From Candidatus Woesearchaeota archaeon (GTDB lineage: Archaea > Nanobdellota > Nanobdellia > Woesearchaeales > GW2011-AR4): a stretch of 64,000 bases of DNA. The stretch is taken from positions 10,999 to 74,998 of the forward strand of contig JACPMR010000002.1 of assembly GCA_016185945.1 (NCBI GenBank). The letters run 5' to 3'. Position 1 is the stretch's first letter, and every line of letters begins with the position of its first letter. The translations under genes and the position numbers were made by a program. The notes beneath the pieces were generated by a model. That model made no database searches, was not told the origin of the DNA, and was given only the letters and a program-made list of their open reading frames with translations. Of this stretch, positions 2,689 through 58,742 are shown one piece after another.

Positions 2689-3615
2689 ATGACAAGTCAA
2701 ACTACTTTAAATCGGAGATATACTACTGATAGATTATATGATATAGTTTTGGCTGAAGCCAAAAATTTCCTAGTCCTTCCTGACGACGTGGCAAAATTGT
2801 GCTTGCAGGACGAACAAAGAACCAAAGCTTTGATGGATATAATATCTGAAACAACGTTGCCTGATACATTAGGAGCAGATATTGGCGCAGGTTCCGGAAT
2901 ACTAGGCTTTGCTTTTCTTAATGCGGGTGGTAGGTATTTGTTCAGTGTTGAAAAATCACCTAGATGGGCTGATTTTATTCGAAAACTCGCTTATCAATTA
3001 GGGTTTCATGAACAAATGAAAGTTTATACCGCCGATGCAACAACTGTTAGGCTGGAACCACACCCTCCAATTGATTATGTTATTGCCGAACTTGTCAGTA
3101 CTGGCTTAAGCCGTGAGCCATTGGTACAGGCTGTGAAAAATATAAGGCAGTATGCTTCTCCTAATGCAATCTATTTACCTTTATGGGTTATTTCAGAAAT
3201 TGTAGTTCATACCGGACGAAGGAGCGGAAATGGTTCAAAACCTCTTACAAAACCAAAAATATATGACGTGGTTCATATGCCTTCTGTATCGGCAACAGGA
3301 GTGGATTGCGAAGTCGAATTAGAAGCAATTAATGAAGGAAAGCCAGAGCATGTTGCTTTAGATACAACTCTTATAGGCCCAAATGGATTGCCAATAGGAA
3401 AATTTGATACACTCTGTGGCTCTTTTTCAGTTCCCTTAAGCTTCGAAGATCCTTCAGCTTCTTTGCTTGTAAAAATGGCAGGTCCATTTACTACTCCAAA
3501 GGTCTCGATTGGGCAAAGGATTATTGTTCGTATTGATTATCAATATGGTGAAGTAATAGATTGTGAATATGGCAGGCCACAAAAAACATTTCGATGGTCT
3601 TGTAGAAAGTTGTAA
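2689..3615 (+). CDS. class I SAM-dependent methyltransferase with PRMT-like architecture (MTase fold plus C-terminal beta domain)
   Basis: Motif I DIGAGSGILGFAF, post-I FSVEKSP, motif II IDYVIAELVSTGL. 308 aa, similar length and order to protein arginine methyltransferases. Opposite strand to the flanking car/arg genes. Confidence 0.5.
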   Translation: MTSQTTLNRRYTTDRLYDIVLAEAKNFLVLPDDVAKLCLQDEQRTKALMDIISETTLPDTLGADIGAGSGILGFAFLNAGGRYLFSVEKSPRWADFIRKLAYQLGFHEQMKVYTADATTVRLEPHPPIDYVIAELVSTGLSREPLVQAVKNIRQYASPNAIYLPLWVISEIVVHTGRRSGNGSKPLTKPKIYDVVHMPSVSATGVDCEVELEAINEGKPEHVALDTTLIGPNGLPIGKFDTLCGSFSVPLSFEDPSASLLVKMAGPFTTPKVSIGQRIIVRIDYQYGEVIDCEYGRPQKTFRWSCRKL

Positions 3616-13056: not shown

Positions 13057-13086
13057 AATATTGGAGTTCTTTTAAATCTTTAAATT

Positions 13087-13255
13087 TTCAATCCGTCTGC
13101 GACGCATTTTACTGCGCGTCGGCATTCTGATGTTGAGGAAGCATTCTTTTGTGCTCCTCCTCCGCGCCTATTTATTAAATAATTTCAGGCAAACTTTCCT
13201 GAGCTGGGTTCCCATTCCACCCTTGCTTTTGTTGGGAAGCGACGTTGATTGAATT
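13087..13255 (+). repeat. dispersed GC-rich element copy A (subfamily 1)
   Basis: TTCAATCCG, hairpin, conserved blocks cggcattctgatgtt / gtgctcctcc / cctatttatt / ttcctgagctgggttccca / tgggaagcgacgtt. Confidence 0.6.
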
Positions 13256-19926: not shown

Positions 19927-20140
19927 TTATTTTAAATTCCAATCCGTTGCTTCGCAACATTAGTTACTGCTCGGCTTTCGCTCCCCTGCCAGTGACATGC
20001 GAGGCTCGCGAAGAGACTCGCTCGCCAGTCACCCGCTCAAGCCTCGCCTATTTATTTAATAAATTCAGGCAAACATTCCTGAGCTGGGTTCCCATATCAC
20101 CTAGGTAGATGCTGGGAAGCGACGTTTTTGAAATATTTTT
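19927..20140 (+). repeat. element copy B (subfamily-1 3' part, with a ~50-nt internal GC hairpin module)
   Basis: ttccaatccg GTTGC-TTCG-GCAAC. Internal module ccagtgacatgcgaggctcgcgaagagactcgctcgccagtcac. Confidence 0.6.
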
Positions 20141-22268: not shown

Positions 22269-22323
22269 AACTATTTCACCTTTTGATTTTTAAGTGATTT
22301 TGATTTTTATTCGACGACTAATC

Positions 22324-22465
22324 TTTCAATCCGGCTTTGCCAAATTCTAGTGCTCGGCAAAACTTCCCTTTCAATCAGTTTTGCCTCGCCTATATATTCA
22401 ATAAAAAATAAAAAGCGGTTTACTTTCTTCACGCTTACATCCAAAAGTCGCTCTCGTTTTTTTGA
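22324..22465 (+). repeat. element copy C (subfamily 2)
   Basis: ttcaatccg, then ctcGGCAAAACT...AGTTTTGCCtcgcctatatattcaataaaa...aaagtcgctctcg. Confidence 0.6.
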
Positions 22466-23617: not shown

Positions 23618-24499
23618 TTGAGGGTGGTGAATTTCGTGAAAGAGCGCATTACTATAACCCTTGACAAGAATCTGATAAATCAGATAGACAAAAGGATAGA
23701 CGGCATTGATATAAAGAACAGGTCGCAGGAGGTAGAGTTTCTACTTGCAGAGGCGCTTGGCACGCACATTCCTAGCAAAGCAGTTCTCTTGGTTGGAGGC
23801 AGAGGCACGAGATTAAGGCCTTTGACAGACAAAACGCCAAAAGCATTGCTTGAGGTGCAGGGCAAAACCATTACAGAACATTTGTTTGATTTGCTGAAAA
23901 AATACGGGATAAGGGAATGTATTTTATGCACAGGTTATCTGAAAGATAAAATAAAGGAGCACTTTGGAGACGGCAGCAAATTTGGAATGAGCATAACCTA
24001 TGTTGAAGAGGATGAACCATTGGGAACGGCTGGACCATTAAAATTGGCTAAAAAATACCTGAATGACAGCTTTATTGTCTCTAATGGGGACGAGTTGAAG
24101 AACATCAACATTCCAAGGATGTTTAGATTGCATAAGAGAAAAAACGCATTGTCTACAATTGCACTTACAACAGTCGATGATCCTTCACATTACGGGGTTG
24201 CACGGCTTGACGGCTCCAGAATCGTTGAGTTTGTTGAAAAACCAAGCAGTCCACCTTCTAATTTAATAAATGCGGGGTTTTATATACTCGAGCCAGAGGT
24301 TATTGACACTATTCCACATGGCTTTGCAATGCTTGAGAAGGATGTTTTCCCAAAGCTTGCACAGCTCGGCAGATTAAGGGGGTTTCCATTTGCAGGGCAG
24401 TGGTTTGACATCGGCAATATAGAAAGGTACAAGATTGCAGAAAAGAGATGGGGAGGCATTGTCCCATTCGAGGAAGACGAGATGGACATCAGGGAATAG
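23618..24499 (+). CDS. sugar-1-phosphate nucleotidyltransferase with N-terminal ribbon-helix-helix-like segment (start uncertain; TTG/GTG start)
   Basis: LVGGRGTRLRPLT pyrophosphorylase loop. N-terminal ERITITLDKNLINQIDKRI...EVEFLLAEAL resembles a CopG/RHH fold. Confidence 0.75.
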   Translation: MRVVNFVKERITITLDKNLINQIDKRIDGIDIKNRSQEVEFLLAEALGTHIPSKAVLLVGGRGTRLRPLTDKTPKALLEVQGKTITEHLFDLLKKYGIRECILCTGYLKDKIKEHFGDGSKFGMSITYVEEDEPLGTAGPLKLAKKYLNDSFIVSNGDELKNINIPRMFRLHKRKNALSTIALTTVDDPSHYGVARLDGSRIVEFVEKPSSPPSNLINAGFYILEPEVIDTIPHGFAMLEKDVFPKLAQLGRLRGFPFAGQWFDIGNIERYKIAEKRWGGIVPFEEDEMDIRE

Positions 24500-24533: not shown

Positions 24534-25880
24534 ATGCTCTCAGAAATATTCAAAGCATACGATGTAAGGGGGATTTACGGGCAAAATCTTACTGAGGAAA
24601 CAGCTTATAAAATCGGTAGGGCTTTTGTCTGCTTTCTCAAGTGCAAAGACGTGATTGTAGGGACTGACATGAGAGAATCCTCGCCAAAACTCAGCAAGGC
24701 ATTCATGAAGGGTGTTGCAGAACAAAGAGCAAATGCAGTTTTCATAGGAGAGGTTTGCACAGATGCCGTTTATTTTGCCTCGGGATTTTTGAATAAGCCG
24801 GCTGTGATGTTTACTGCCTCTCACAATCCACCCCAATGGAATGGAATTAAATTCTGCAGAGAAAATGCAATACCCATAAATGAAGACACCGGATTAAAAA
24901 GGATAAAGTCAATAATTGAAAATAATGAATATAGTAAAAAAACGGCAAAAAAACAAGGAAAAATAATCAAAAGAGATGTATTAAAAAACTATGTAGCTCA
25001 CGTCAGGAAATTTATTGATATTAAAAAACTGGGAAAATTAAAGATTGCAGTTGATGCGGGCAATGGGATGGCTGGAAAGATGATTCCATTGGTTTATAAA
25101 AATCTTCCAATTAAGATTATTCCTATTTATTTCAAACTCGACGGGACTTTCCCGAACCATCCTGCTGACCCGTCAAAATATGAAAACCTTGTTGAATTGC
25201 AGAAAATTGTAAGAGAGCAAAACTGCGACTTTGGAATAGCTTTTGATGGCGATGCCGACAGGATATTTTTCGTAGATGAAAATGGACATGTAATAAACAG
25301 TTCTCTTATATCGGCATTGATAATAAAAAATATATTAGCAATTAGCAATAAGCAAAAAATAATTTACAATGCAGTGTGCAGCCATATAGTGCCTGAGACG
25401 ATAAAAAAATACGGAGGCACCCCGATCATCGAAAGAGTGGGACATTCCTTCATAAAGGAAACGATGAGAAAAACAAAGGCGATTTTTGCATGTGAGCATT
25501 CAGCACATTATTATTACAAGGGGAATTTCCGGGCTGACTCCGGCATAATAACAAGCTTGATTATGTCCGAGATTATCTCAAAGGATAATAAGCCATTGTC
25601 ACAATTGCTGGAGGAATTCGGGGTTTACCATACAATAGAAGAAACCAATGTGGATGTAAAAGACAAAAGTGCAAAATTGAGGGAAATCGAAAACATTTAC
25701 AAAAAACAAGACCCTAAAAAAATATCAAAGCTCGACGGTATCACTATTGAATTTGATGCCTGGTGGTTCAATGTCAGGCCTAGCAATACAGAGCCATTGC
25801 TGAGGTTAAATTTAGAAGCGGATTCTGAGGAATTGATGAAAGAGAAAAAAGAGGAATTGCTTAATTTAATGAGAAGTTAA
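24534..25880 (+). CDS. phosphomannomutase/phosphoglucomutase
   Basis: YDVRGIY N-terminus. Active-site TASHNPPQWNGIKF. Confidence 0.88.
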   Translation: MLSEIFKAYDVRGIYGQNLTEETAYKIGRAFVCFLKCKDVIVGTDMRESSPKLSKAFMKGVAEQRANAVFIGEVCTDAVYFASGFLNKPAVMFTASHNPPQWNGIKFCRENAIPINEDTGLKRIKSIIENNEYSKKTAKKQGKIIKRDVLKNYVAHVRKFIDIKKLGKLKIAVDAGNGMAGKMIPLVYKNLPIKIIPIYFKLDGTFPNHPADPSKYENLVELQKIVREQNCDFGIAFDGDADRIFFVDENGHVINSSLISALIIKNILAISNKQKIIYNAVCSHIVPETIKKYGGTPIIERVGHSFIKETMRKTKAIFACEHSAHYYYKGNFRADSGIITSLIMSEIISKDNKPLSQLLEEFGVYHTIEETNVDVKDKSAKLREIENIYKKQDPKKISKLDGITIEFDAWWFNVRPSNTEPLLRLNLEADSEELMKEKKEELLNLMRS

Positions 25881-26865
25881 ATGTTTTTGTAGATATTGGT
25901 ATTGTTAAAAAATTATTTGGATTATATTGAAATATTGCAGGAACTGGTTTAACAAGGTGATCTATGGTATATTGTTGGCTCAAAGATTTTTGAGCTTGCA
26001 TATCAAATCCATAATAAGACGAGTCACTAGCATTTCTCCTAGGAGTAAAGCGTCCTCGCAAATAGTCACTGATAAATTCGGCAATTATCTCTCCATGGTT
26101 GAATGCGAAATTGCCAGCCTCAATGTTCTTGACAACCTTTTCAAGCGACATGACGGCAGGTATGCCTGCGTCAGGCGCCATTCCTGAAGAAGAAACTGCT
26201 TTCCAGTCTTCCTTCGATTTCACTTGTATAACATAAACAAAATTATTTGATTCGTATCCATTGAAGTAATCCTTGGCAACATAAACCGGCTTCGGATTTT
26301 CCTTCAAAGAGTCTAGCAATATTGTCTGCGCCTTTTTGTTAACTATTTCTTCCTTTATTTCCCTTACAAGCGCTTCCAAGCTTGATTCATTTTCTTCAAT
26401 GCCTCCTCCGACAAGCGAAAACTTCCCTATTTCGCTTTTTATTGGATAATCATACGACTTAATCTCCAAGTAGAATTTAATTTTGCCTGTCTTGGGGTCC
26501 CTGTAGAGAATTACTGCAATTGCCCCGTCAATATTCTCGTACTTAACTTGATTTTCTTTTTTGTTTGATTTTCTGTAGTTTCGTGAAGAACCTTCATTTT
26601 TGTAAGGAGATTTATCGTCTTGTTCTTTTCTATCTTTTCTGTGATTGACATGCCTACCAGATTTGGAGCCATTGGAAGTGTCTTTATCTTCATTAGCTGT
26701 TCTTCTTTCTGCTCTTGAGGATTTGGACTCGTAATTTTTATCGTTTAGCCTGCGCTCTATACCTCTTCTTTCATTAGGGGTGTTAGTCCTATGGCTATCT
26801 CCAGCATCTTCTTCTACTCTTTCTTCCAGCCCTTCACGCTCTGCAACTTCAGCAGCTTCTTCCAT
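25861..26865 (-). CDS. Nudix hydrolase with ~115-aa highly charged disordered N-terminal extension
   Basis: Nudix box GGGIEENESSLEALVREIKEEIV. N-terminal E/R/K/S/N-rich low-complexity region. Confidence 0.7.
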   Translation of the reverse strand: MEEAAEVAEREGLEERVEEDAGDSHRTNTPNERRGIERRLNDKNYESKSSRAERRTANEDKDTSNGSKSGRHVNHRKDRKEQDDKSPYKNEGSSRNYRKSNKKENQVKYENIDGAIAVILYRDPKTGKIKFYLEIKSYDYPIKSEIGKFSLVGGGIEENESSLEALVREIKEEIVNKKAQTILLDSLKENPKPVYVAKDYFNGYESNNFVYVIQVKSKEDWKAVSSSGMAPDAGIPAVMSLEKVVKNIEAGNFAFNHGEIIAEFISDYLRGRFTPRRNASDSSYYGFDMQAQKSLSQQYTIDHLVKPVPAIFQYNPNNFLTIPISTKTFNFSLN

Positions 26866-26934
26866 TTTTGCAAAAATTTGATTATTATATAGTGGTAAAT
26901 ATGCATTAAGGAATTTAAAAATTTATCGTTGTTT

Positions 26935-27024
26935 TAGAAAATGACATTAATTATTGGACATTTGTGTCATTTTCTAAGATAGTAAGTGACAAATAAATGC
27001 CCTAAAACTTGTGTCACTTACTAT
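26935..27024. promoter_or_regulatory. two adjacent perfect long-spacer palindromes (AGAAAATGACA-N20-TGTCATTTTCT and TAGTAAGTGACA-N20-TGTCACTTACTA) upstream of the Pop5/exosome superoperon
   Basis: Read directly. Both share a TGACA...TGTCA core. About 120-210 bp upstream of the ATG at 27144. Confidence 0.5.
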
Positions 27025-27143
27025 TTGGCTGACTTTTACCAAATAAAACTACAAAACCCAAAACTTTAAATACTATTTAATAATACTCCAGCCTAACAGA
27101 GAGAAGAGAATGGCGTTATTATATTTCTTCTCATAATAGTGAG

Positions 27144-27509
27144 ATGATAAAGACAAAATTAAAGCCTATTTTGCCAAGCCTGAGGGAAAAAAAGCGCTAT
27201 CTGGTATTCGAGATAATTTCAAAAGAGAGGGTAGAAGACGCTGGCGCTGTTTCAAACGCAATATGGGGCTGTGCATTGAAGTTTCTGGGACAGCTTGGCA
27301 CTGCCAAAGCAGGAATTATGGTGCTTAACAACAAGTGGAATGCAAAGCTTCAGAGAGGCGTCATAAAAGTCAGCCACAAGCATGTCGATGCCTTAAAGGC
27401 GGCATTGATTTTTGCTGGCGGGATTGACAACACAGAGGTTATATTTAAGAGTGTGGGCGTGTCGGGCATATTAAGAAAAGCCGAACGAAAATATTTAAAT
27501 GCTTTGTGA
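27144..27509 (+). CDS. rnp2: RNase P protein component 2 (Pop5/Rnp2)
   Basis: LPSLREKKRYLVFEI matches the archaeal Pop5 N-terminus. Position in the exosome superoperon. Confidence 0.75.
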   Translation: MIKTKLKPILPSLREKKRYLVFEIISKERVEDAGAVSNAIWGCALKFLGQLGTAKAGIMVLNNKWNAKLQRGVIKVSHKHVDALKAALIFAGGIDNTEVIFKSVGVSGILRKAERKYLNAL

Positions 27510-32904: not shown

Positions 32905-32943
32905 TTTTGTTAACCTTTTGATAACCTTATTTATTTAAATATA

Positions 32944-33146
32944 TTCAATCCGTTGCTTCGCAACAATATTTAGTGCTCACCCTCACTTTTCTGCCAGTGG
33001 CATGCGAGGCTCGCGAAGAGACTCGCTCGCCAGTCACCCGTTCGGGCTCGCCTATCATTCAATAACAAAATCAAAAGCTGGTCTCCTTCATCGCTTGGGG
33101 AATCTAAAGGAAGCTCTCGTGATTGTTTTGAATTAGTTTATTGTTA
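32944..33146 (+). repeat. element copy D (subfamily-2 3' end plus the internal module)
   Basis: ttcaatccg GTTGC-TTCG-GCAAC. Same internal module as B with gtggc in place of gtgac. Confidence 0.6.
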
Positions 33147-37872: not shown

Positions 37873-38043
37873 ATATTTCAAACAACTTCGCTTCCCAGCA
37901 TCTGCAAAGGTTAGTGGGAGCCCAGCTCAGGAATTTTTGCCTATCCATTTCAAATATATAGGCGCCGAGGGGGAGCACAAAATAATGCAACTTTAACATC
38001 TAAATGCCGAGGCGCACTAGAATTCGCCGAAGGCGAATTGAAA
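37873..38043 (-). repeat. element copy E (subfamily 1, reverse orientation)
   Basis: Reverse complement reads ttcaattcg CGCC-TTCG-GCG ... cctatatatttg ... ttcctgagctgggctccca ... tgggaagcgaagtt. Confidence 0.6.
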
Positions 38044-38473
38044 TTTTAAGATTATAAAAGATTAAAAACAAAATCAATAAGTTGATAGAGCAGATTGAAT
38101 CAAAGATTTAAAATCATAAGAAAATCTTAAAATAAATTTATAAAAAAGCCACCCCCAACACCAAGCTGGGGGCAACCACACACAAAGAGGTTTTGAGTCA
38201 AAAGAGGGTTACTGACTCTTTGCCTATGCTTATAAATTATTCATCACCTTTAACTTATCACCTCCGATTTTTTAATCGCCTTCCAAACCAATGAAAATAA
38301 AAAGCACCTCATAAAGAGGTGCCACACACTTGGAGATGTTTTGATGATATCTAGGCAATAGCTTAAACGAGGGTTTATAAATACCCTGTGAAAGGCTGTT
38401 AGAGAGAAAACCTACAGAACTATCTTTCATAAGCTTTTTAAATGGATGTTTTTAAGCTGCCTGTGTGGGTTAA

Positions 38474-39208
38474 GTGGTAAAGCTCGTATATTCTCCGCAA
38501 TGGTTTTATGGAAAGGACATATTGATTGATTTAGTTAGCATTTTTGTTCTGTGTATGATAGCGCTGTTCAGCATAAAATCATATAAAATCAGGAAAAACA
38601 GGAATTACTTGTATTTGGCACTATCGTTTGGGCTTTTAGCTGTGTCTTTCTTGTTTAAGATATTAATGAATTTTAACATTTATTTTAAGTTTCTTGAAAA
38701 AAGTCAGCTTGGAGCAATAACAGAAACCTACCACGCAATGAGGGCGTCAAATTCTATCTTTCCAATATCATTCTTGTTTTACTGGCTTTTGACTCTTTTT
38801 GCCGTCTATGTGCTTTATTCCATATATGAAAAGCAGTCGATATCAAATCACCTGCTTAATATTTATCTTATATTCGTATCAACTTATCTTAGCTATCCCG
38901 ATTATTACGTATTCCACATCACGCTTTTGGTTCTGCTGGCTTTGGTAACCTTTGTTTATTCAAGAAAGTATTTAAACACAAAACATTTTGCTACTAAACT
39001 AGCGGCATACAGCTTCGGCATAATTGCAGCAAGCCAGATATTTTTTATATTAGTGAACATAAGCAATTACTTTTATGTGGTAGGCGAGCTTGTTCAATTG
39101 ATTGGGTATGCTGTTTTGCTCTCCACTTTTATCATGGTGCTAAAGTATGGCAGAACGAAGGACACGCACAGACATAATAGGCGATATGCTTACTTCTATA
39201 CTAGATAA
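38474..39208 (+). CDS. polytopic membrane protein, hypothetical
   Basis: 244 aa with ~7 hydrophobic helices. Confidence 0.5.
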   Translation: MVKLVYSPQWFYGKDILIDLVSIFVLCMIALFSIKSYKIRKNRNYLYLALSFGLLAVSFLFKILMNFNIYFKFLEKSQLGAITETYHAMRASNSIFPISFLFYWLLTLFAVYVLYSIYEKQSISNHLLNIYLIFVSTYLSYPDYYVFHITLLVLLALVTFVYSRKYLNTKHFATKLAAYSFGIIAASQIFFILVNISNYFYVVGELVQLIGYAVLLSTFIMVLKYGRTKDTHRHNRRYAYFYTR

Positions 39209-39419
39209 AGGAGGGAAAATCAAGCCAACCCACCTTATGTATAAGTCGAATCTTGCCCATAGCCAGATGATTGGCTACCTTAATGAGCTCATTGAAAAGG
39301 ATTTGGTAAAGAAGGTAAAGACAGAAAAGGGCGAAGTTATAACCATAACCGACAAAGGATGCGAGTTAGTGAAGAAACTGAAAGAGATTAAAGAGTTTGA
39401 GAAGGCGTTTGGGCTGTAG
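39147..39419 (+). CDS. small winged-helix DNA-binding protein (start probably an internal Met)
   Basis: 90 aa, helix-turn-helix-like. Overlaps the upstream ORF end by ~60 nt in another frame. Confidence 0.4.
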   Translation: MAERRTRTDIIGDMLTSILDKGGKIKPTHLMYKSNLAHSQMIGYLNELIEKDLVKKVKTEKGEVITITDKGCELVKKLKEIKEFEKAFGL

Positions 39420-41171: not shown

Positions 41172-41204
41172 TTTTATTTTTTGATTTTAATTATATTTTT
41201 TATT

Positions 41205-41352
41205 TTTTCAATCCGTCCCTTCGGGACAATGTTTACTGCTCGGCAAAACTTTCCCTTTCAATCAGTTTTGCCTCGCCTATAAATCCAATAAAACGTCAAA
41301 AGCTGGTCTCCTTTATTATGATTACTTTCAAAGGACGCTCTCGTGATTGTTT
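41205..41352 (+). repeat. element copy F (subfamily 2)
   Basis: ttcaatccg GTCCC-TTCG-GGAC, then the same core as C. Confidence 0.6.
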
Positions 41353-42269: not shown

Positions 42270-42315
42270 TTTTTTGTTAAATTTTTTATTTGATTTTTAA
42301 TTATTATTTTTTAAT

Positions 42316-42457
42316 ATTTCAATCCGCTCACTTCGTTCGCAAACTTTACTGCTCGGCGAAATTTGCCTGCCACTAAATTTCGCCTCGCCCATATATGCAC
42401 TAAAATCATCAAAAGCGGTTTACTTTAATCACTTGCTACATATAAAAGTCGCTCTTG
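42316..42457 (+). repeat. element copy G (subfamily 2, compensatory variant)
   Basis: ttcaatccg. Core hairpin GGCGAAATTT/AAATTTCGCC in place of GGCAAAACT/AGTTTTGCC. Confidence 0.55.
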
Positions 42458-50925: not shown

Positions 50926-50976
50926 TTTTGTTTTTGAGTTTTTGATTTGTTTTTAATCTTGCTTATTAAAAATTTC

Positions 50977-51075
50977 TTCAATCCGTCGTGCTTCGCACGA
51001 CAATATCTTGGCGCCTCGGCATTCTGATGTGAAGGCAACATTTATTTGTGCTCCTCCTCGGCGCCTATACATTTA
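50977..51075 (+). repeat. element copy H (subfamily 1, 3'-truncated)
   Basis: ttcaatccg GTCGTGC-TTCG-GCACGAC, then cggcattctgatgtg...gtgctcctcctcggcgcctatacattt. Confidence 0.55.
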
Positions 51076-51079
51076 ATCC

Positions 51080-52018
51080 TTACTTCTTAAATGCTGTTTT
51101 CATGCTCCAGTTGAATCCAATGTCCTCAATGGTTATTGAATTATTGTTCAAAGAGTCCAAAAACTTAAACTTTTCGTTTTTCTCAAAGCAGCTTCTATGC
51201 CACCATGAAGCACTATCGGAGTTTACAGCTTCTATAACCCTTGCATAGGCTCCTGCATCAAAGTGTATGTACTCAACTACAAGCTTTCCATCATCAGCTA
51301 CGGTGCATCTTGCCACAAACGGCTCTGCAGTCCTTTCCAAAACTGGAGAGTTTGCCTGCAACGCTCCATAGTAGACAGTTCCTGTAATGTTAGCATTACC
51401 GGCGACCATCAATCTCTGGTTTGGGGCAGTTGTGCCTATGCCGACGTTGCCTGCCTCGCTGATTCTCATTCGCTCATTATTGTCGGCGTTGCCTCCCGTA
51501 TAAAACCGAATAACTGCTGCCCCATTGGTGGAGGTGATTGACATCCCTCCTGCTCCGTTAGTTGCCAGTTCTGCGCCAGCCTGCTTTGCCGAGCCGCTAG
51601 AAGTATACGCAGAGCCATAATGATTGAAGAAGTTGGCCGTGACATCATCGGTAACCTGAATTATTGCGCTGGAAGATGTGCCTCCTCCTTGATTTGTAAC
51701 TTTTAATCTCGTCGATGCATCTTGGTCATGTCTTACTTCCAGCCGCTGTGAAGGGCTCGCTGTACCAATGCCCACCTTGTTGTTTGTTGAGTCAACAAAC
51801 AATGTATCCGTATCAATGAATAAGTTGTTTGAAACGTTTAAAGCACCATTTTCCGCTGTAATGCCTGCTCCGCTTATGAGGATGGCTGCCATTACGAATA
51901 GAGCTAACGCTAGGCAGAGCTTTAATATTTGGGTAAAATAGGAGTTCAATCTGGAAAATCTGTTCAAAACAAATCTTTCTTTTTTATTTTTCCTGTATGT
52001 ATTTCTTCTTTTTTCCAT
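51080..52018 (-). CDS. membrane-anchored protein with two copies of a VGIGT(A/T)xPxQRLxV tail-fibre-like motif; GC-rich relative to surroundings
   Basis: TM helix LCLALALFVMAAILISGAG. KVGIGTASPSQRLEV and NVGIGTTAPNQRLMV. A start at the internal Met (52018) avoids overlap with the upstream gene. Confidence 0.55.
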   Translation of the reverse strand: MEKRRNTYRKNKKERFVLNRFSRLNSYFTQILKLCLALALFVMAAILISGAGITAENGALNVSNNLFIDTDTLFVDSTNNKVGIGTASPSQRLEVRHDQDASTRLKVTNQGGGTSSSAIIQVTDDVTANFFNHYGSAYTSSGSAKQAGAELATNGAGGMSITSTNGAAVIRFYTGGNADNNERMRISEAGNVGIGTTAPNQRLMVAGNANITGTVYYGALQANSPVLERTAEPFVARCTVADDGKLVVEYIHFDAGAYARVIEAVNSDSASWWHRSCFEKNEKFKFLDSLNNNSITIEDIGFNWSMKTAFKK

Positions 52019-56729: not shown

Positions 56730-58742
56730 TTACTTCAAACTCCCCTTCAAAAACAAATAACCACCTTCATTAACAAAAGCAACTAGATTGCTTGAATTGT
56801 CCTTTATCCTGAAGTCATTTTTATTTGTGCCAGAGGTTAAAGTACCTTGATTTTCCTGCAAAGTGCCGTCAATATACATAGAGCCATTGTTTTCTATTAT
56901 CAAGACATCATTTAGGTTGTTTCTTATCTTAAAGGCGAAATTATCTGTCGCTTGGAAGTTTGAGGATTGTTCTAGAACACCTTTTATTACTATATTTCCA
57001 GCATCTCCAAACCATGCTATGTTGCTACCTGAAGAGTTTTTTATGAGGAATTTGTTTATGTCTGGAAGAGAGGTTGTGTTTACAGTGACAGAAGCAGTTA
57101 ATGAAGCAGTTACTGCAGTTGATTCGCTTATTCCAGTTGCATTTGCCTTTACATTGAATGTTCCGCCGCTGCTGAAATTGTAAGCCAGATATACAAATTC
57201 CTTTTCGTTTACAGCTAAAGAGCTTATGTTTATTGTGCTGTTTATCACATTGTTGTTGGCTGTGTCAAACTGCCATTGGACATTTGTGACTGTGTTGCTG
57301 CCGTTGTTCAGAATGACAAATTCAAAGATTTTTAGTGTTCCATTGCTGTACATCTCTGTTATAGATTCTATCTTAAGCGATACAACAACGCTTACATTAT
57401 CCTGTATGTAATAAACACCAAAATCAGATAAATTTAATATACCAAAATTGTTTGAAGAAAATGCCAGAGAGACATTGCAGTAGCCTTCAGAATCCTCGCT
57501 GCAATTTGCTAGAGCATTATTTAATTCCTGATTGAAGTCAAGCACATTTTCTTCATTGCCAAAGTATCCTGTATTATTCCAAGCCTGGCTATTATTTACA
57601 TATAAAATGGGGTTTTGTGTTGCGTTTCTAATTGTAACAGTATTAGCACTTTGTACCTGTGTTCCAAACAACAAACCATCGCTTGGAGTGACTTTGCAAT
57701 ACCATTGATCGCCAGGTGTTAAATTGTTTTTGGCCAATGTTTGAGAGTTTATATTTTGGTTTACACTATTTTTCCACCATTGATAGCTTGAATTTTGCTC
57801 TGTAAAGTTTTCTGGATCGGAATAAGTGTAGTTGCATAATAAGTCTTGTCCAGCATTTGGGATTTCTGGTAGGACACTTACATTAGAAACAGAAGGTGCT
57901 TCATGAGTTCTGTCACAGCTTTGGTCATTGCTTTGATTTATTAAAGTTGATTCATAAACAATATATTTTACACTAGGTGGAGTTACAGCGCCTATCCTGT
58001 TTATGTTTACATAGTCATTGGCGCCCCCTAAATTATCACCGCACTCTGAATCTGTATATAATGTACTATCTGGAGTGCCCTGATCATAATAATAACCTTG
58101 ATGCACATTCAGTATTGTGGCTCTGTTGTAGCAGTCTGTATCGCATATACCACTTCCACCAACCCCTGAGCATGCTACTGTATTCGGAGAGCATAATACC
58201 CCTTCTTTAACTCTGATTTTTGAACGATAAGTGCTGTCGGCATCAGCTTCTGTATGGGCCCTCATTGTCTTAATTAAATAATCAAACTCTGGATCGCCAA
58301 CATTCCCGATATAGTTGTTCATGCCGTTAAACCATGGCGAGCTTCTTTGCGTATCATCCCAAAATCCGCCTATTGCTTCTGAATCACAATCTGGAGAAAC
58401 TGGATCTACTGTAATACTTACCTCATGGTCAGCCATGTGTGTTGCATCATAAGTGAAATTGTAGCATCTTCCTGTATTTGTAGGAGTATAGCTAGAAGAA
58501 ATATCATTATCTTCCACTCTGCTGTTGTCTAAAAATCCAACGTTTGTATCAGAAGCCACTTGAGTCCAATCTTGCTTGCATACTTCCACTGTGCAATTCC
58601 TTACACAAGTTGAGCCTTCGCATTTTACGCCATTATCGGTATAGCCAGAAGGACATGCTGATGTAGTGCAGTTTATGTAAGCCAAAGTATTTGGAATTAT
58701 TAAAAATAATGCTAAAATCCATATTAAATTTATTTTTCTCAT
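56730..58742 (-). CDS. secreted Cys-rich surface protein with shared C-terminal cassette
   Basis: Signal peptide. Cys-rich N-terminus. C-terminal ~110 aa about 90% identical to the tail of 52029-54122. Confidence 0.6.
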   Translation of the reverse strand: MRKINLIWILALFLIIPNTLAYINCTTSACPSGYTDNGVKCEGSTCVRNCTVEVCKQDWTQVASDTNVGFLDNSRVEDNDISSSYTPTNTGRCYNFTYDATHMADHEVSITVDPVSPDCDSEAIGGFWDDTQRSSPWFNGMNNYIGNVGDPEFDYLIKTMRAHTEADADSTYRSKIRVKEGVLCSPNTVACSGVGGSGICDTDCYNRATILNVHQGYYYDQGTPDSTLYTDSECGDNLGGANDYVNINRIGAVTPPSVKYIVYESTLINQSNDQSCDRTHEAPSVSNVSVLPEIPNAGQDLLCNYTYSDPENFTEQNSSYQWWKNSVNQNINSQTLAKNNLTPGDQWYCKVTPSDGLLFGTQVQSANTVTIRNATQNPILYVNNSQAWNNTGYFGNEENVLDFNQELNNALANCSEDSEGYCNVSLAFSSNNFGILNLSDFGVYYIQDNVSVVVSLKIESITEMYSNGTLKIFEFVILNNGSNTVTNVQWQFDTANNNVINSTINISSLAVNEKEFVYLAYNFSSGGTFNVKANATGISESTAVTASLTASVTVNTTSLPDINKFLIKNSSGSNIAWFGDAGNIVIKGVLEQSSNFQATDNFAFKIRNNLNDVLIIENNGSMYIDGTLQENQGTLTSGTNKNDFRIKDNSSNLVAFVNEGGYLFLKGSLK

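Follow-up and report, generated by a model that had tools for sequence, protein, structure and literature searches.

Two perfect inverted repeats, P1 and P2, lie side by side in a stretch of 64,000 nt from a Candidatus Woesearchaeota archaeon (the window), a short distance ahead of a superoperon that begins with pop5, the gene for a protein subunit of RNase P. The question raised by this locus is whether the repeats control that operon and, if not, what they are. In a preliminary description, made from the letters of the sequence, they were proposed to be tandem operator sites of a dimeric regulator or paired RNA hairpins in a long leader of the operon. The palindromes are real, and this interpretation of them is only partly supported. 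The best reading, held tentatively and at somewhat less than an even chance, is that they form a lineage-specific hairpin element located where a Nudix gene and pop5 diverge, with the hairpins acting as nucleic-acid structure.

Both palindromes are present in the intergenic region (26866–27143) that separates a minus-strand open reading frame (ORF; 25861–26865) from pop5 (27144–27509). In P1 (26934–26977), the left arm TTAGAAAATGACA (26934–26946) is the perfect complement of the right arm TGTCATTTTCTAA (26965–26977), and the two enclose a spacer of 18 nt (26947–26964). In P2 (26979–27024), the equally perfect arms ATAGTAAGTGACA (26979–26991) and TGTCACTTACTAT (27012–27024) enclose a spacer of 20 nt (26992–27011). 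The arms had been described as perfect over 11–12 bp; the perfection is confirmed and the length is greater than claimed, 13 nt with 13 of 13 positions complementary in both cases. A spacer of 20 nt had been given for each palindrome, which is correct for P2 and not for P1, and the distance between the centers is 46 bp, where ∼47 bp had been stated. The position of the pair, 120–210 nt upstream of the pop5 ATG at 27144, agrees with the description. A third hairpin, H3 (27022–27045), appears in the folds of both strands as a 7-bp stem with an N10 loop, TATTTGG-CTGACTTTTA-CCAAATA (arms 27022–27028 and 27039–27045). It shares 3 nt with the end of P2, so that the three stems abut with no spacers between them, and the whole block of P1, P2, and H3 extends from 26934 to 27045.

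The length of the arms sets P1 and P2 apart from the background. The window was scanned exhaustively for perfect inverted repeats with spacers of 0–60 nt, and chance was modeled with 200 shuffles that kept the local composition in blocks of 300 nt. Four repeats with arms of at least 10 nt were found, about the expected number given a background of ∼5 per 64 kb in the shuffles; P1 and P2 are the longest of the four and the only ones with arms of at least 12 nt. Arms of at least 13 nt are expected 0.075 times per 64 kb, and two or more such repeats, the number found, occurred in only one of the 200 shuffles, which bears out the statement that the arms are beyond chance. The TGACA…TGTCA core emphasized earlier is indeed present in both palindromes; alone it is not significant, since TGACA-N16–24-TGTCA occurs twice in the window and 0.8 occurrences are expected. 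The sole other repeat in the window with arms of at least 11 nt, TTGTTTGTTGA-G-TCAACAAACAA (51780–51802), is a perfect palindrome whose 11-nt arms flank a single nucleotide.

A stable fold is predicted for the 121-nt region on either strand, with energies of −35.8 kcal/mol (plus) and −35.6 kcal/mol (minus) against shuffle means of −17 and −15, corresponding to z = −6.5 to −6.8 across both strands. Comparison of the two palindromes with each other indicates what has been kept. The two share 10 of their 13 arm positions, and the differences at positions 1, 5, and 8 of the left arm are mirrored at positions 13, 9, and 6 of the right arm; six random substitutions on the 26 arm positions would give three complementary pairs with P = 4.6 × 10⁻⁵. 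The loops of P1 and P2 are only marginally similar (P = 0.07), both ending in TTG before the right arm, and the arms are therefore the constrained part. P1 and P2 are related units of 44–46 nt, which most simply arose as tandem duplicates of a ∼45-nt unit and kept their pairing during divergence. Because all three arm differences are mirrored, the two copies show preservation of intra-strand pairing, as expected of an RNA hairpin or of a DNA hairpin or cruciform, rather than of the sequence of a protein half-site. The mirrored pattern is unlike the product of one regulator reading four equivalent half-sites. Either selection on the hairpin or homogenization of the arms through template switching during replication could keep P1 and P2 paired. 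The compensated pair changes number three and lie between the paralogous copies P1 and P2 only, and template switching can mimic such a pattern (Monttinen and Loytynoja, 2022; PMC8794818).

The bases beside the arms hint at the strand on which a hairpin would form. G·T-type juxtapositions occur next to the arms of P1 at 26947/26964, 26933/26978, 26931/26980, 26929/26982, and 26928/26983 and next to those of P2 at 26978/27025. They correspond to G·U pairs in plus-strand RNA and to A·C mismatches in minus-strand RNA, and they are partly used in the fold, where the plus-strand helix of P1 is extended inward through 26947/26964 and then 26949–26951/26960–26962, and outward through 26928–26933/26978–26983. 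Such flanks mildly favor the plus strand, with the caveat that four of the six juxtapositions form one run that competes with the left arm of P2.

Two further matches involve the loops. The loop of H3 together with three stem bases (27026–27038, TGGCTGACTTTTA) is the exact reverse complement of pop5 codons at 27364–27376 (TAAAAGTCAGCCA), a coding segment conserved in two of the related loci introduced below (L006 and L014). This match could be due to chance (blast E ∼0.2) or, should a plus-strand RNA extend over the two, could reflect long-range pairing. A 14-nt match between the P1 loop and 57275–57288 lies inside a coding region and is taken as chance.

The gene content of the superoperon is as described and is backed by Pfam: Pop5 (PF01900; 27144–27509, plus strand) is the first gene and is followed by proteasome alpha, SBDS, Rrp4, Rrp41, Rrp42, an ORF without a Pfam match, and DUF357. 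The Pop5 protein is identical to NCBI protein HYX02_00230, encoded on a 121-kb contig of a Candidatus Woesearchaeota metagenome-assembled genome, and no other relative exceeds 80% identity. For comparison, 28 related pop5 loci were collected, 10 from genomes and 15 from metagenomes by Pop5 searches and 3 contigs by exact look-up; their Pop5 identities range from 67% to 80%, with the exception of an outlier, L010, at 33%.

These loci share a control region that lies downstream of the palindromes. In the window it begins with a B recognition element (BRE) and TATA box, CCCAAAAC TTTAAATA CT (27057–27074, plus strand; TATA at 27064–27072), in which TTTA.ATA is invariant across an alignment of 19 non-redundant relatives (A1). 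With a position weight matrix trained on pop5 promoters, it is the best match in the intergenic region (score 19.2). The BRE/TATA consensus of the relatives is CGCAACCTTTAAATA, and exactly 24 nt on stands the almost invariant AACAGAGAGAAGAGAA; likewise, 24 nt separate the TATA element CTTTAAATA from the start of AACAGAGAG in nearly all relatives. The leader element AACAGAGAGAAGAGAA-loop-TTTCTTCTC occupies 27095–27132 on the plus strand (arms 27101–27109 and 27124–27132), its first bases being the predicted transcription start site (TSS). It forms a hairpin, AACAGAGAGA...TTCTTCTC, just before pop5, in which ACAGAGAGA and TTCTTCTC are invariant and the loop contains GGnGTTA. The invariance of the stems means that they provide no covariation evidence, and the hairpin (27095–27132) has no match in Rfam. 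The promoter and leader hairpin were found in 26 of the 28 related loci (L001–L009, L014–L029, and L031), the exceptions being the distant L010 and the contig L030. They are thus kept in all relatives with a Pop5 identity of at least 67% except L030, though the surrounding DNA cannot be aligned, and each locus, like the window, has a single occurrence of the motif.

The TATA center of an archaeal promoter usually lies ∼26 nt from the start of transcription. With this spacing, the conserved TATA box predicts a start of the operon transcript at ∼27095, and because the hairpin block ends at 27045, upstream of the TATA box, P1, P2, and H3 would not be included in a leader that starts at this promoter. 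The palindromes themselves reach no farther than 27024, and neither lies between the predicted TSS and the start codon; an additional promoter farther upstream is conceivable. Of the earlier proposal of paired hairpins in the pop5 leader, the hairpins therefore survive, on the strength of the mirrored differences and the folding z, and the location does not. The structure of P1 and P2 is not conserved with the pop5 operon; the relatives keep the 27095–27132 hairpin instead. As judged from this comparison, the conserved control region of the operon is shown to consist of the promoter and the invariant 5′ leader hairpin, and the palindrome block lies outside it. A leader of ∼50 nt, as predicted for pop5, is unusual here, TATA-like strings at most window genes where they were found lying 29–42 nt before the start codon. 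The hairpin that follows the promoter makes a candidate cis-regulatory RNA, possibly an autoregulatory one, for the RNase P/proteasome/exosome operon of this Woesearchaeota clade.

Inspection and scans for perfect repeats revealed no palindromes like P1 and P2 upstream of pop5 in any of the 28 related loci, and, together with the conserved promoter and leader hairpin downstream of the palindromes, this speaks against the proposed link to the pop5 operon. A regulon of further TGACA-N20–22-TGTCA sites had been envisaged, and the search found none in the rest of the 64-kb window or in ∼86 kb of related loci. The bare core pattern matches the related loci once, in L001, at a point 1.1 kb past the beginning of pop5. 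When the two palindromes were made into a covariance model (R1) and this was run over the window and 23 loci, it returned nothing beyond P1 and P2 in 150 kb, the best foreign match having E = 7, and a degenerate half-site, written TAGnAAnTGACA / TAGWAARTGACA, gave chance-level matches when one mismatch was allowed. No further copies of P1 or P2 are present in the window or in the ∼86 kb of related loci, nor were any matches found among viral contigs (exact-arm search) or phage and plasmid records (blastn). The whole window has no match to Rfam 15 at gathering thresholds, and a permissive search (E up to 10) gave chance hairpin matches only (E ≥ 0.5); no tRNA was found in the window. As far as computation reaches, then, the motif is absent elsewhere and the TSS lies downstream of both palindromes, two outcomes that the preliminary description had itself named as counting against its proposal. 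The relatives do bear other perfect hairpins, in the 5′ untranslated region of L015, L016, and L018 and in the pop5-psmA spacer of L006, L010, L028, and L029, and perfect repeats with arms of at least 10 nt are strongly enriched in those noncoding stretches over the rest of the loci.

The other side of the intergenic region differs from that of the relatives. In at least eight of them (L003, L005, L014, L015, L018, L019, L022, and L028), a phosphomannomutase (PMM) gene with the orientation of pop5 ends 60–200 nt before the pop5 TATA box. In the window, by contrast, 1.2 kb containing an antisense Nudix ORF and the hairpin block are interposed between PMM (24534–25880) and pop5, which indicates that the palindromes belong to a lineage-specific insertion. 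The Nudix-domain ORF (25861–26865, minus strand; 334 aa; Pfam NUDIX) is divergent from pop5 and convergent with PMM. Its 3′ end overlaps that of PMM by 20 nt, and there is therefore no second insertion boundary. The protein is almost an orphan: a word-indexed search of 5.8 billion proteins, which reaches only relatives sharing exact 5-residue words, gave one homologue with 59% identity. The N-terminal 110 aa are charged and of low complexity, and this extension is missing in the homologue, whose gene is also convergent with PMM and lies on a 932-nt contig that stops short of the upstream region. Seen from the Nudix ATG (26865), P1 comes 69 nt upstream, directly after two TATA-like strings of the minus strand, CTATATAA (26893–26886) and TTTTTAAAT (26921–26913). 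Located 20–27 and 48–56 nt upstream of the ATG, these are candidate promoter elements of the Nudix gene (26886–26921) identified from sequence only; the pop5-trained matrix recovers only the pop5 promoter in the intergenic region and leaves the Nudix strings unscored. From this arrangement, a role of the palindromes for the Nudix gene is no less likely than one for pop5. Found in a single lineage and associated with the inserted Nudix gene, they are a feature of an ordinary kind with an unusually clean signature of preserved pairing.

In the preferred reading, P1, P2, and H3 would make up a single contiguous hairpin-forming block between the inserted Nudix gene and the pop5 superoperon, and the hairpins would work as RNA. 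This reading is favored because the pairing is constrained, the three stems are packed end to end, and hairpins are enriched clade-wide in the noncoding parts of the operon. Archaeal TATA boxes are often bidirectional, with starts about 50 bp apart. Both TATA-like elements that flank the block are near-symmetric, that of pop5 containing the near-palindromic TTTAAA, and may fire both ways. In Pyrococcus furiosus, one TATA box drives divergent starts whose TSSs are 49–50 bp apart (PMC6640164). With a spacing of 50 nt from the predicted TSS at 27095, an upstream start on the minus strand would fall on 27045, the first base of H3, and the resulting transcript would read H3, P2, and P1 on to the Nudix ORF. 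The block would then be the structured 5′ leader of the Nudix mRNA, or a cap or insulator of upstream-antisense transcripts between both promoters. Alternatively, the TATA-like TTATATAG (26886–26893) might fire a plus-strand RNA from ∼26915 that carries all three hairpins. The upstream-antisense transcripts of P. furiosus (PMC6640164) are similar in their near-palindromic TTTAAA and in their geometry, which places the start predicted 50 nt upstream at the first hairpin of the block. They differ in that they are generally held to be nonfunctional noise and that a structured hairpin array on them is undescribed; the start considered here is, moreover, only predicted.

Several points weigh against this reading. 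Loops of 18–20 nt are large for regulatory RNA hairpins. The strand evidence conflicts, the G·U-type flanks pointing to the plus strand and the geometry of a bidirectional TATA box to a minus-strand RNA. The contig of the sole Nudix homologue gives no orthologous intergenic region to compare, and a consensus scan of 26700–27300 revealed no oligo-U terminator after the hairpins. Finally, mirrored substitutions can also arise without selection through template switching during replication (PMC8794818).

The last of these points leads to an account in which the block has no function: it would be a neutral by-product, a tandemly duplicated short inverted repeat whose copies are kept perfect by template switching (quasipalindrome homogenization). 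A single template-switch event can make perfect stems and multi-base "compensatory" changes (PMC8794818), and the stems attributed to this mechanism are like P1 and P2 in being perfect, in having multi-base differences mirrored, and in having loops that are much less constrained (Monttinen and Loytynoja, 2022; PMC8794818). The element is unique and missing from all 28 related loci, and the relatives bear varied lineage-specific perfect palindromes near pop5, which suggests a mutational source; some of these have 1-nt spacers and are impossible as RNA hairpins, for example TCGAAAATCA-A-TGATTTTCGA in L016. Despite these similarities, the neutral account is considered rather doubtful. DPANN genomes are compact and most intergenic regions of the window are short; two 13-bp stems and a third hairpin placed end to end represent more order than a single template switch yields; the arms are better kept than the loops; and hairpins are enriched in the noncoding parts of the operon across the clade. 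Moreover, template switching explains the origin and maintenance of a stem and assigns it no function, whereas here three hairpins are packed between two promoters. An origin as a mobile palindrome, that is, a remnant or copy of a REP, REPIN, or MITE or a recombination site that arrived with the Nudix gene, can barely be credited. It would account for the fact that the Nudix gene and palindromes form an insertion relative to the PMM-pop5 adjacency of the relatives, and a ∼125-nt MITE-like insertion with CGAAAATCA terminal repeats does interrupt the promoter region of L028. REP, BIME, REPIN, and MITE elements are likewise short intergenic palindromic units, sometimes in tandem. However, they are multi-copy families with a transposase, whereas P1 and P2 occupy a single locus, no copies having been found in the window, the ∼86 kb of related loci, viral contigs, or phage or plasmid records, and no transposase or integrase gene is adjacent. 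Quite unlikely, too, is an independent small noncoding RNA gene of ∼110–125 nt with two to three hairpins. Three abutting hairpins, a strong folding z, TATA-like strings at plausible distances on both sides, and a T5 run after P1 on the minus strand (26921–26917) would fit such a gene. The region has no Rfam match even at E up to 10 and no homologue in the related loci; the candidate promoters are off the promoter consensus of the genome, and the T5 run doubles as a TATA-like box.

The operator interpretation retains some attraction and is nevertheless improbable. In its present form, four half-sites (TAGnAAnTGACA) arranged as →N18← · →N20← would bind an oligomeric regulator, with two DNA-reading heads set apart by a large core as in NikR or FitAB, that controls the Nudix promoter and possibly pop5. 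The half-site centers are 31 and 33 bp apart, ∼three helical turns, and thus lie roughly on one face of the helix. The site is in a divergent promoter region, P1 ending ∼6–12 bp upstream of the Nudix-side TATA-like element; the four half-sites share a core, and a candidate protein is encoded two genes upstream, a nucleotidyltransferase (23636–24499) with a weak match to PF01402. In an operator, the two halves may differ wherever the protein makes no contact, and a 13-bp asymmetric half-site exceeds what one DNA-reading head normally contacts. In P1 and P2, by contrast, all 13 positions are mirrored, including the three that vary between the palindromes, which is more symmetry than operators need, and the spacers differ by 2 bp. 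Tandem operators of a dimeric regulator, as originally proposed, therefore fit poorly. Neither the window nor the relatives contain another site, and none is found upstream of pop5 in the 28 related loci. The long-spacer palindromic operators of oligomeric ribbon-helix-helix (RHH) regulators are a close parallel: E. coli NikR binds GTATGA-N16-TCATAC, and FitAB 8-bp repeats with a 12-bp spacer. Analogous to these, P1 and P2 have inverted half-sites, a long non-conserved spacer, and a placement on one helix face, with a gene for an enzyme carrying a weak RHH fusion nearby. In contrast to these, the half-sites of P1 and P2 are 13 bp long and perfectly mirrored, with centers 31–33 bp apart rather than about 20–22 bp; they lack a regulon and conservation, and the RHH match is below the Pfam cut-off. 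Binding of P1 and P2 by the RHH/nucleotidyltransferase fusion (23636–24499) as a NikR-like one-component sensor, with its enzyme core keeping the two heads ∼three helical turns apart, must be regarded as very improbable. If true, the fusion would let nucleotide-sugar status act on both the Nudix gene and the RNase P/proteasome/exosome operon. The fusion is, however, kept in L006, which is without the palindromes, and no such palindrome is present in the promoter region of the nucleotidyltransferase gene itself. The winged-helix protein (39147–39419) put forward earlier as a candidate regulator is a genuine HTH_45 protein, but nothing ties it to the palindromes.

Other functions considered for the region or its neighbors were rejected. 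Intrinsic terminators share with the block stable intergenic hairpins; no terminator site was found in 26700–27300, the flanking genes diverge, and the stems are AT-rich with 18–20-nt loops and no U-tract. A replication origin of the orc1/cdc6-ORB type is not indicated, as the neighbors are Nudix, PMM, nucleotidyltransferase, and the pop5 operon and the changes in GC skew track gene orientation. C/D-box or H/ACA small RNAs, an attC site, and a dif/Xer site were ruled out by inspection of the sequence and gene context. No DNA-binding domain was detected in the Nudix protein by Pfam or by PDB sequence search, contrary to what an NrtR-like regulator would have.

The locus is of value as a clean natural case of two paralogous hairpins kept paired by mirrored substitutions, which bears on the distinction between selection and template switching, and the block marks a region in which divergent archaeal promoters may yield structured noncoding transcripts. 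As a regulator of the essential pop5-proteasome-exosome operon, the palindromes would have been interesting; the comparison points to a different control element. The pop5 leader hairpin and a multi-copy GC-rich cassette described at the end are probably better targets for follow-up than the palindromes.

The nucleotidyltransferase upstream of PMM (23636–24499, and its counterpart at 131–991 of L006), which like PMM is convergent with the Nudix ORF, has an N-terminal extension of ∼45 residues that resembles an RHH domain (KERITITLDKNLINQIDKRI). Its first 40 residues match PF01402 with E = 0.013, which is below the Pfam cut-off, and this sugar-phosphate nucleotidyltransferase may, from its sequence, be an enzyme-regulator fusion. 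Together, the nucleotidyltransferase, PMM, and Nudix genes constitute a nucleotide-sugar cluster.

Structured insertions of several kinds were seen around pop5 in the relatives. Extra modules of 45–105 nt that are rich in perfect hairpins lie in the pop5 5′ untranslated region or after pop5, between the leader hairpin and the pop5 ATG in L005/L019, L006, L015, L016, and L018 and at 936–1073 in L029. Examples are ATGTCAAAAAT...ATTTTTGACAT, TCGGAAATTT...AAATTTCCGA, and the L016 palindrome quoted above; the window has no such module at that place. Homology of the block to these modules was rejected, the similarities being short AT-rich coincidences only. In the pop5-psmA spacer of L006 (3505–3613) and L028 (1019–1117), the ribosome-binding and start region of psmA, ATTAAAATGCAAC, is duplicated and followed by a perfect inverted copy, GTTGCATTTTAAT, that can pair with the decoy or the real psmA start codon 41–42 nt downstream. 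Such alternative pairing could gate the translation of psmA. The MITE-like insertion of L028 (∼365–490; ∼125 nt) is bounded by CGAAAATCA as terminal inverted repeats and contains an internal GC-rich hairpin. It splits the BRE/TATA region when compared with the near-identical L001 promoter, and a new BRE-like CCGCAACC is regenerated downstream.

Logan contigs of the exact strain (L011, L012, L032, and L033) are identical to the window and contain no strain variants of the locus, and exact look-ups of Pop5, PsmA, and SBDS for such variants returned nothing on record. Contig ends are identical across three sequencing runs at 26960, inside the P1 loop, and at 24391, inside the nucleotidyltransferase gene, the end at 26960 occurring in two samples. 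Since other contig ends also coincide between samples, the break at 26960 is probably an ordinary branch of the assembly graph and not a property of the palindrome. The coinciding ends at 26960/26961 and 24391 suggest branches from co-occurring strain variants.

A second structured element recurs elsewhere in the window. It is a GC-rich cassette of 75–120 nt, present in at least eight copies, on the minus strand at 13081–13171, 19932–20051, 22319–22393, 32938–33055, 41201–41280, 42312–42392, and 50971–51068 and on the plus strand at 37957–38053. In each, an upstream box ACGAGAGCG and then a promoter-like AAACCGCTTTT come first, followed in order by AUAGGCG, by helices with intervening tandem GA/GA loops, by GCCGAGCA / GCCGAGCAGUAA, by a hairpin whose loop is C(GAA)G, and by CGGAUUGAA; an A-rich spacer of 40–55 nt then leads to the start codon. 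The motif CGGATTGRA occurs 8 times, with 0.67 occurrences expected. The cassette precedes the genes for S19e, L39e/L31e, a class-I aldolase, alanine dehydrogenase, and GH57, among others, and it has no Rfam match. Copies in relatives were located in L034 (∼2390–2465 and 3466–3590) and L037 (370–445 and ∼1530–1610). In two other Woesearchaeota genomes, the cassette is conserved ahead of S19e and L39e, with compensatory changes in the stems, and from these features it may represent a new 5′-leader family.

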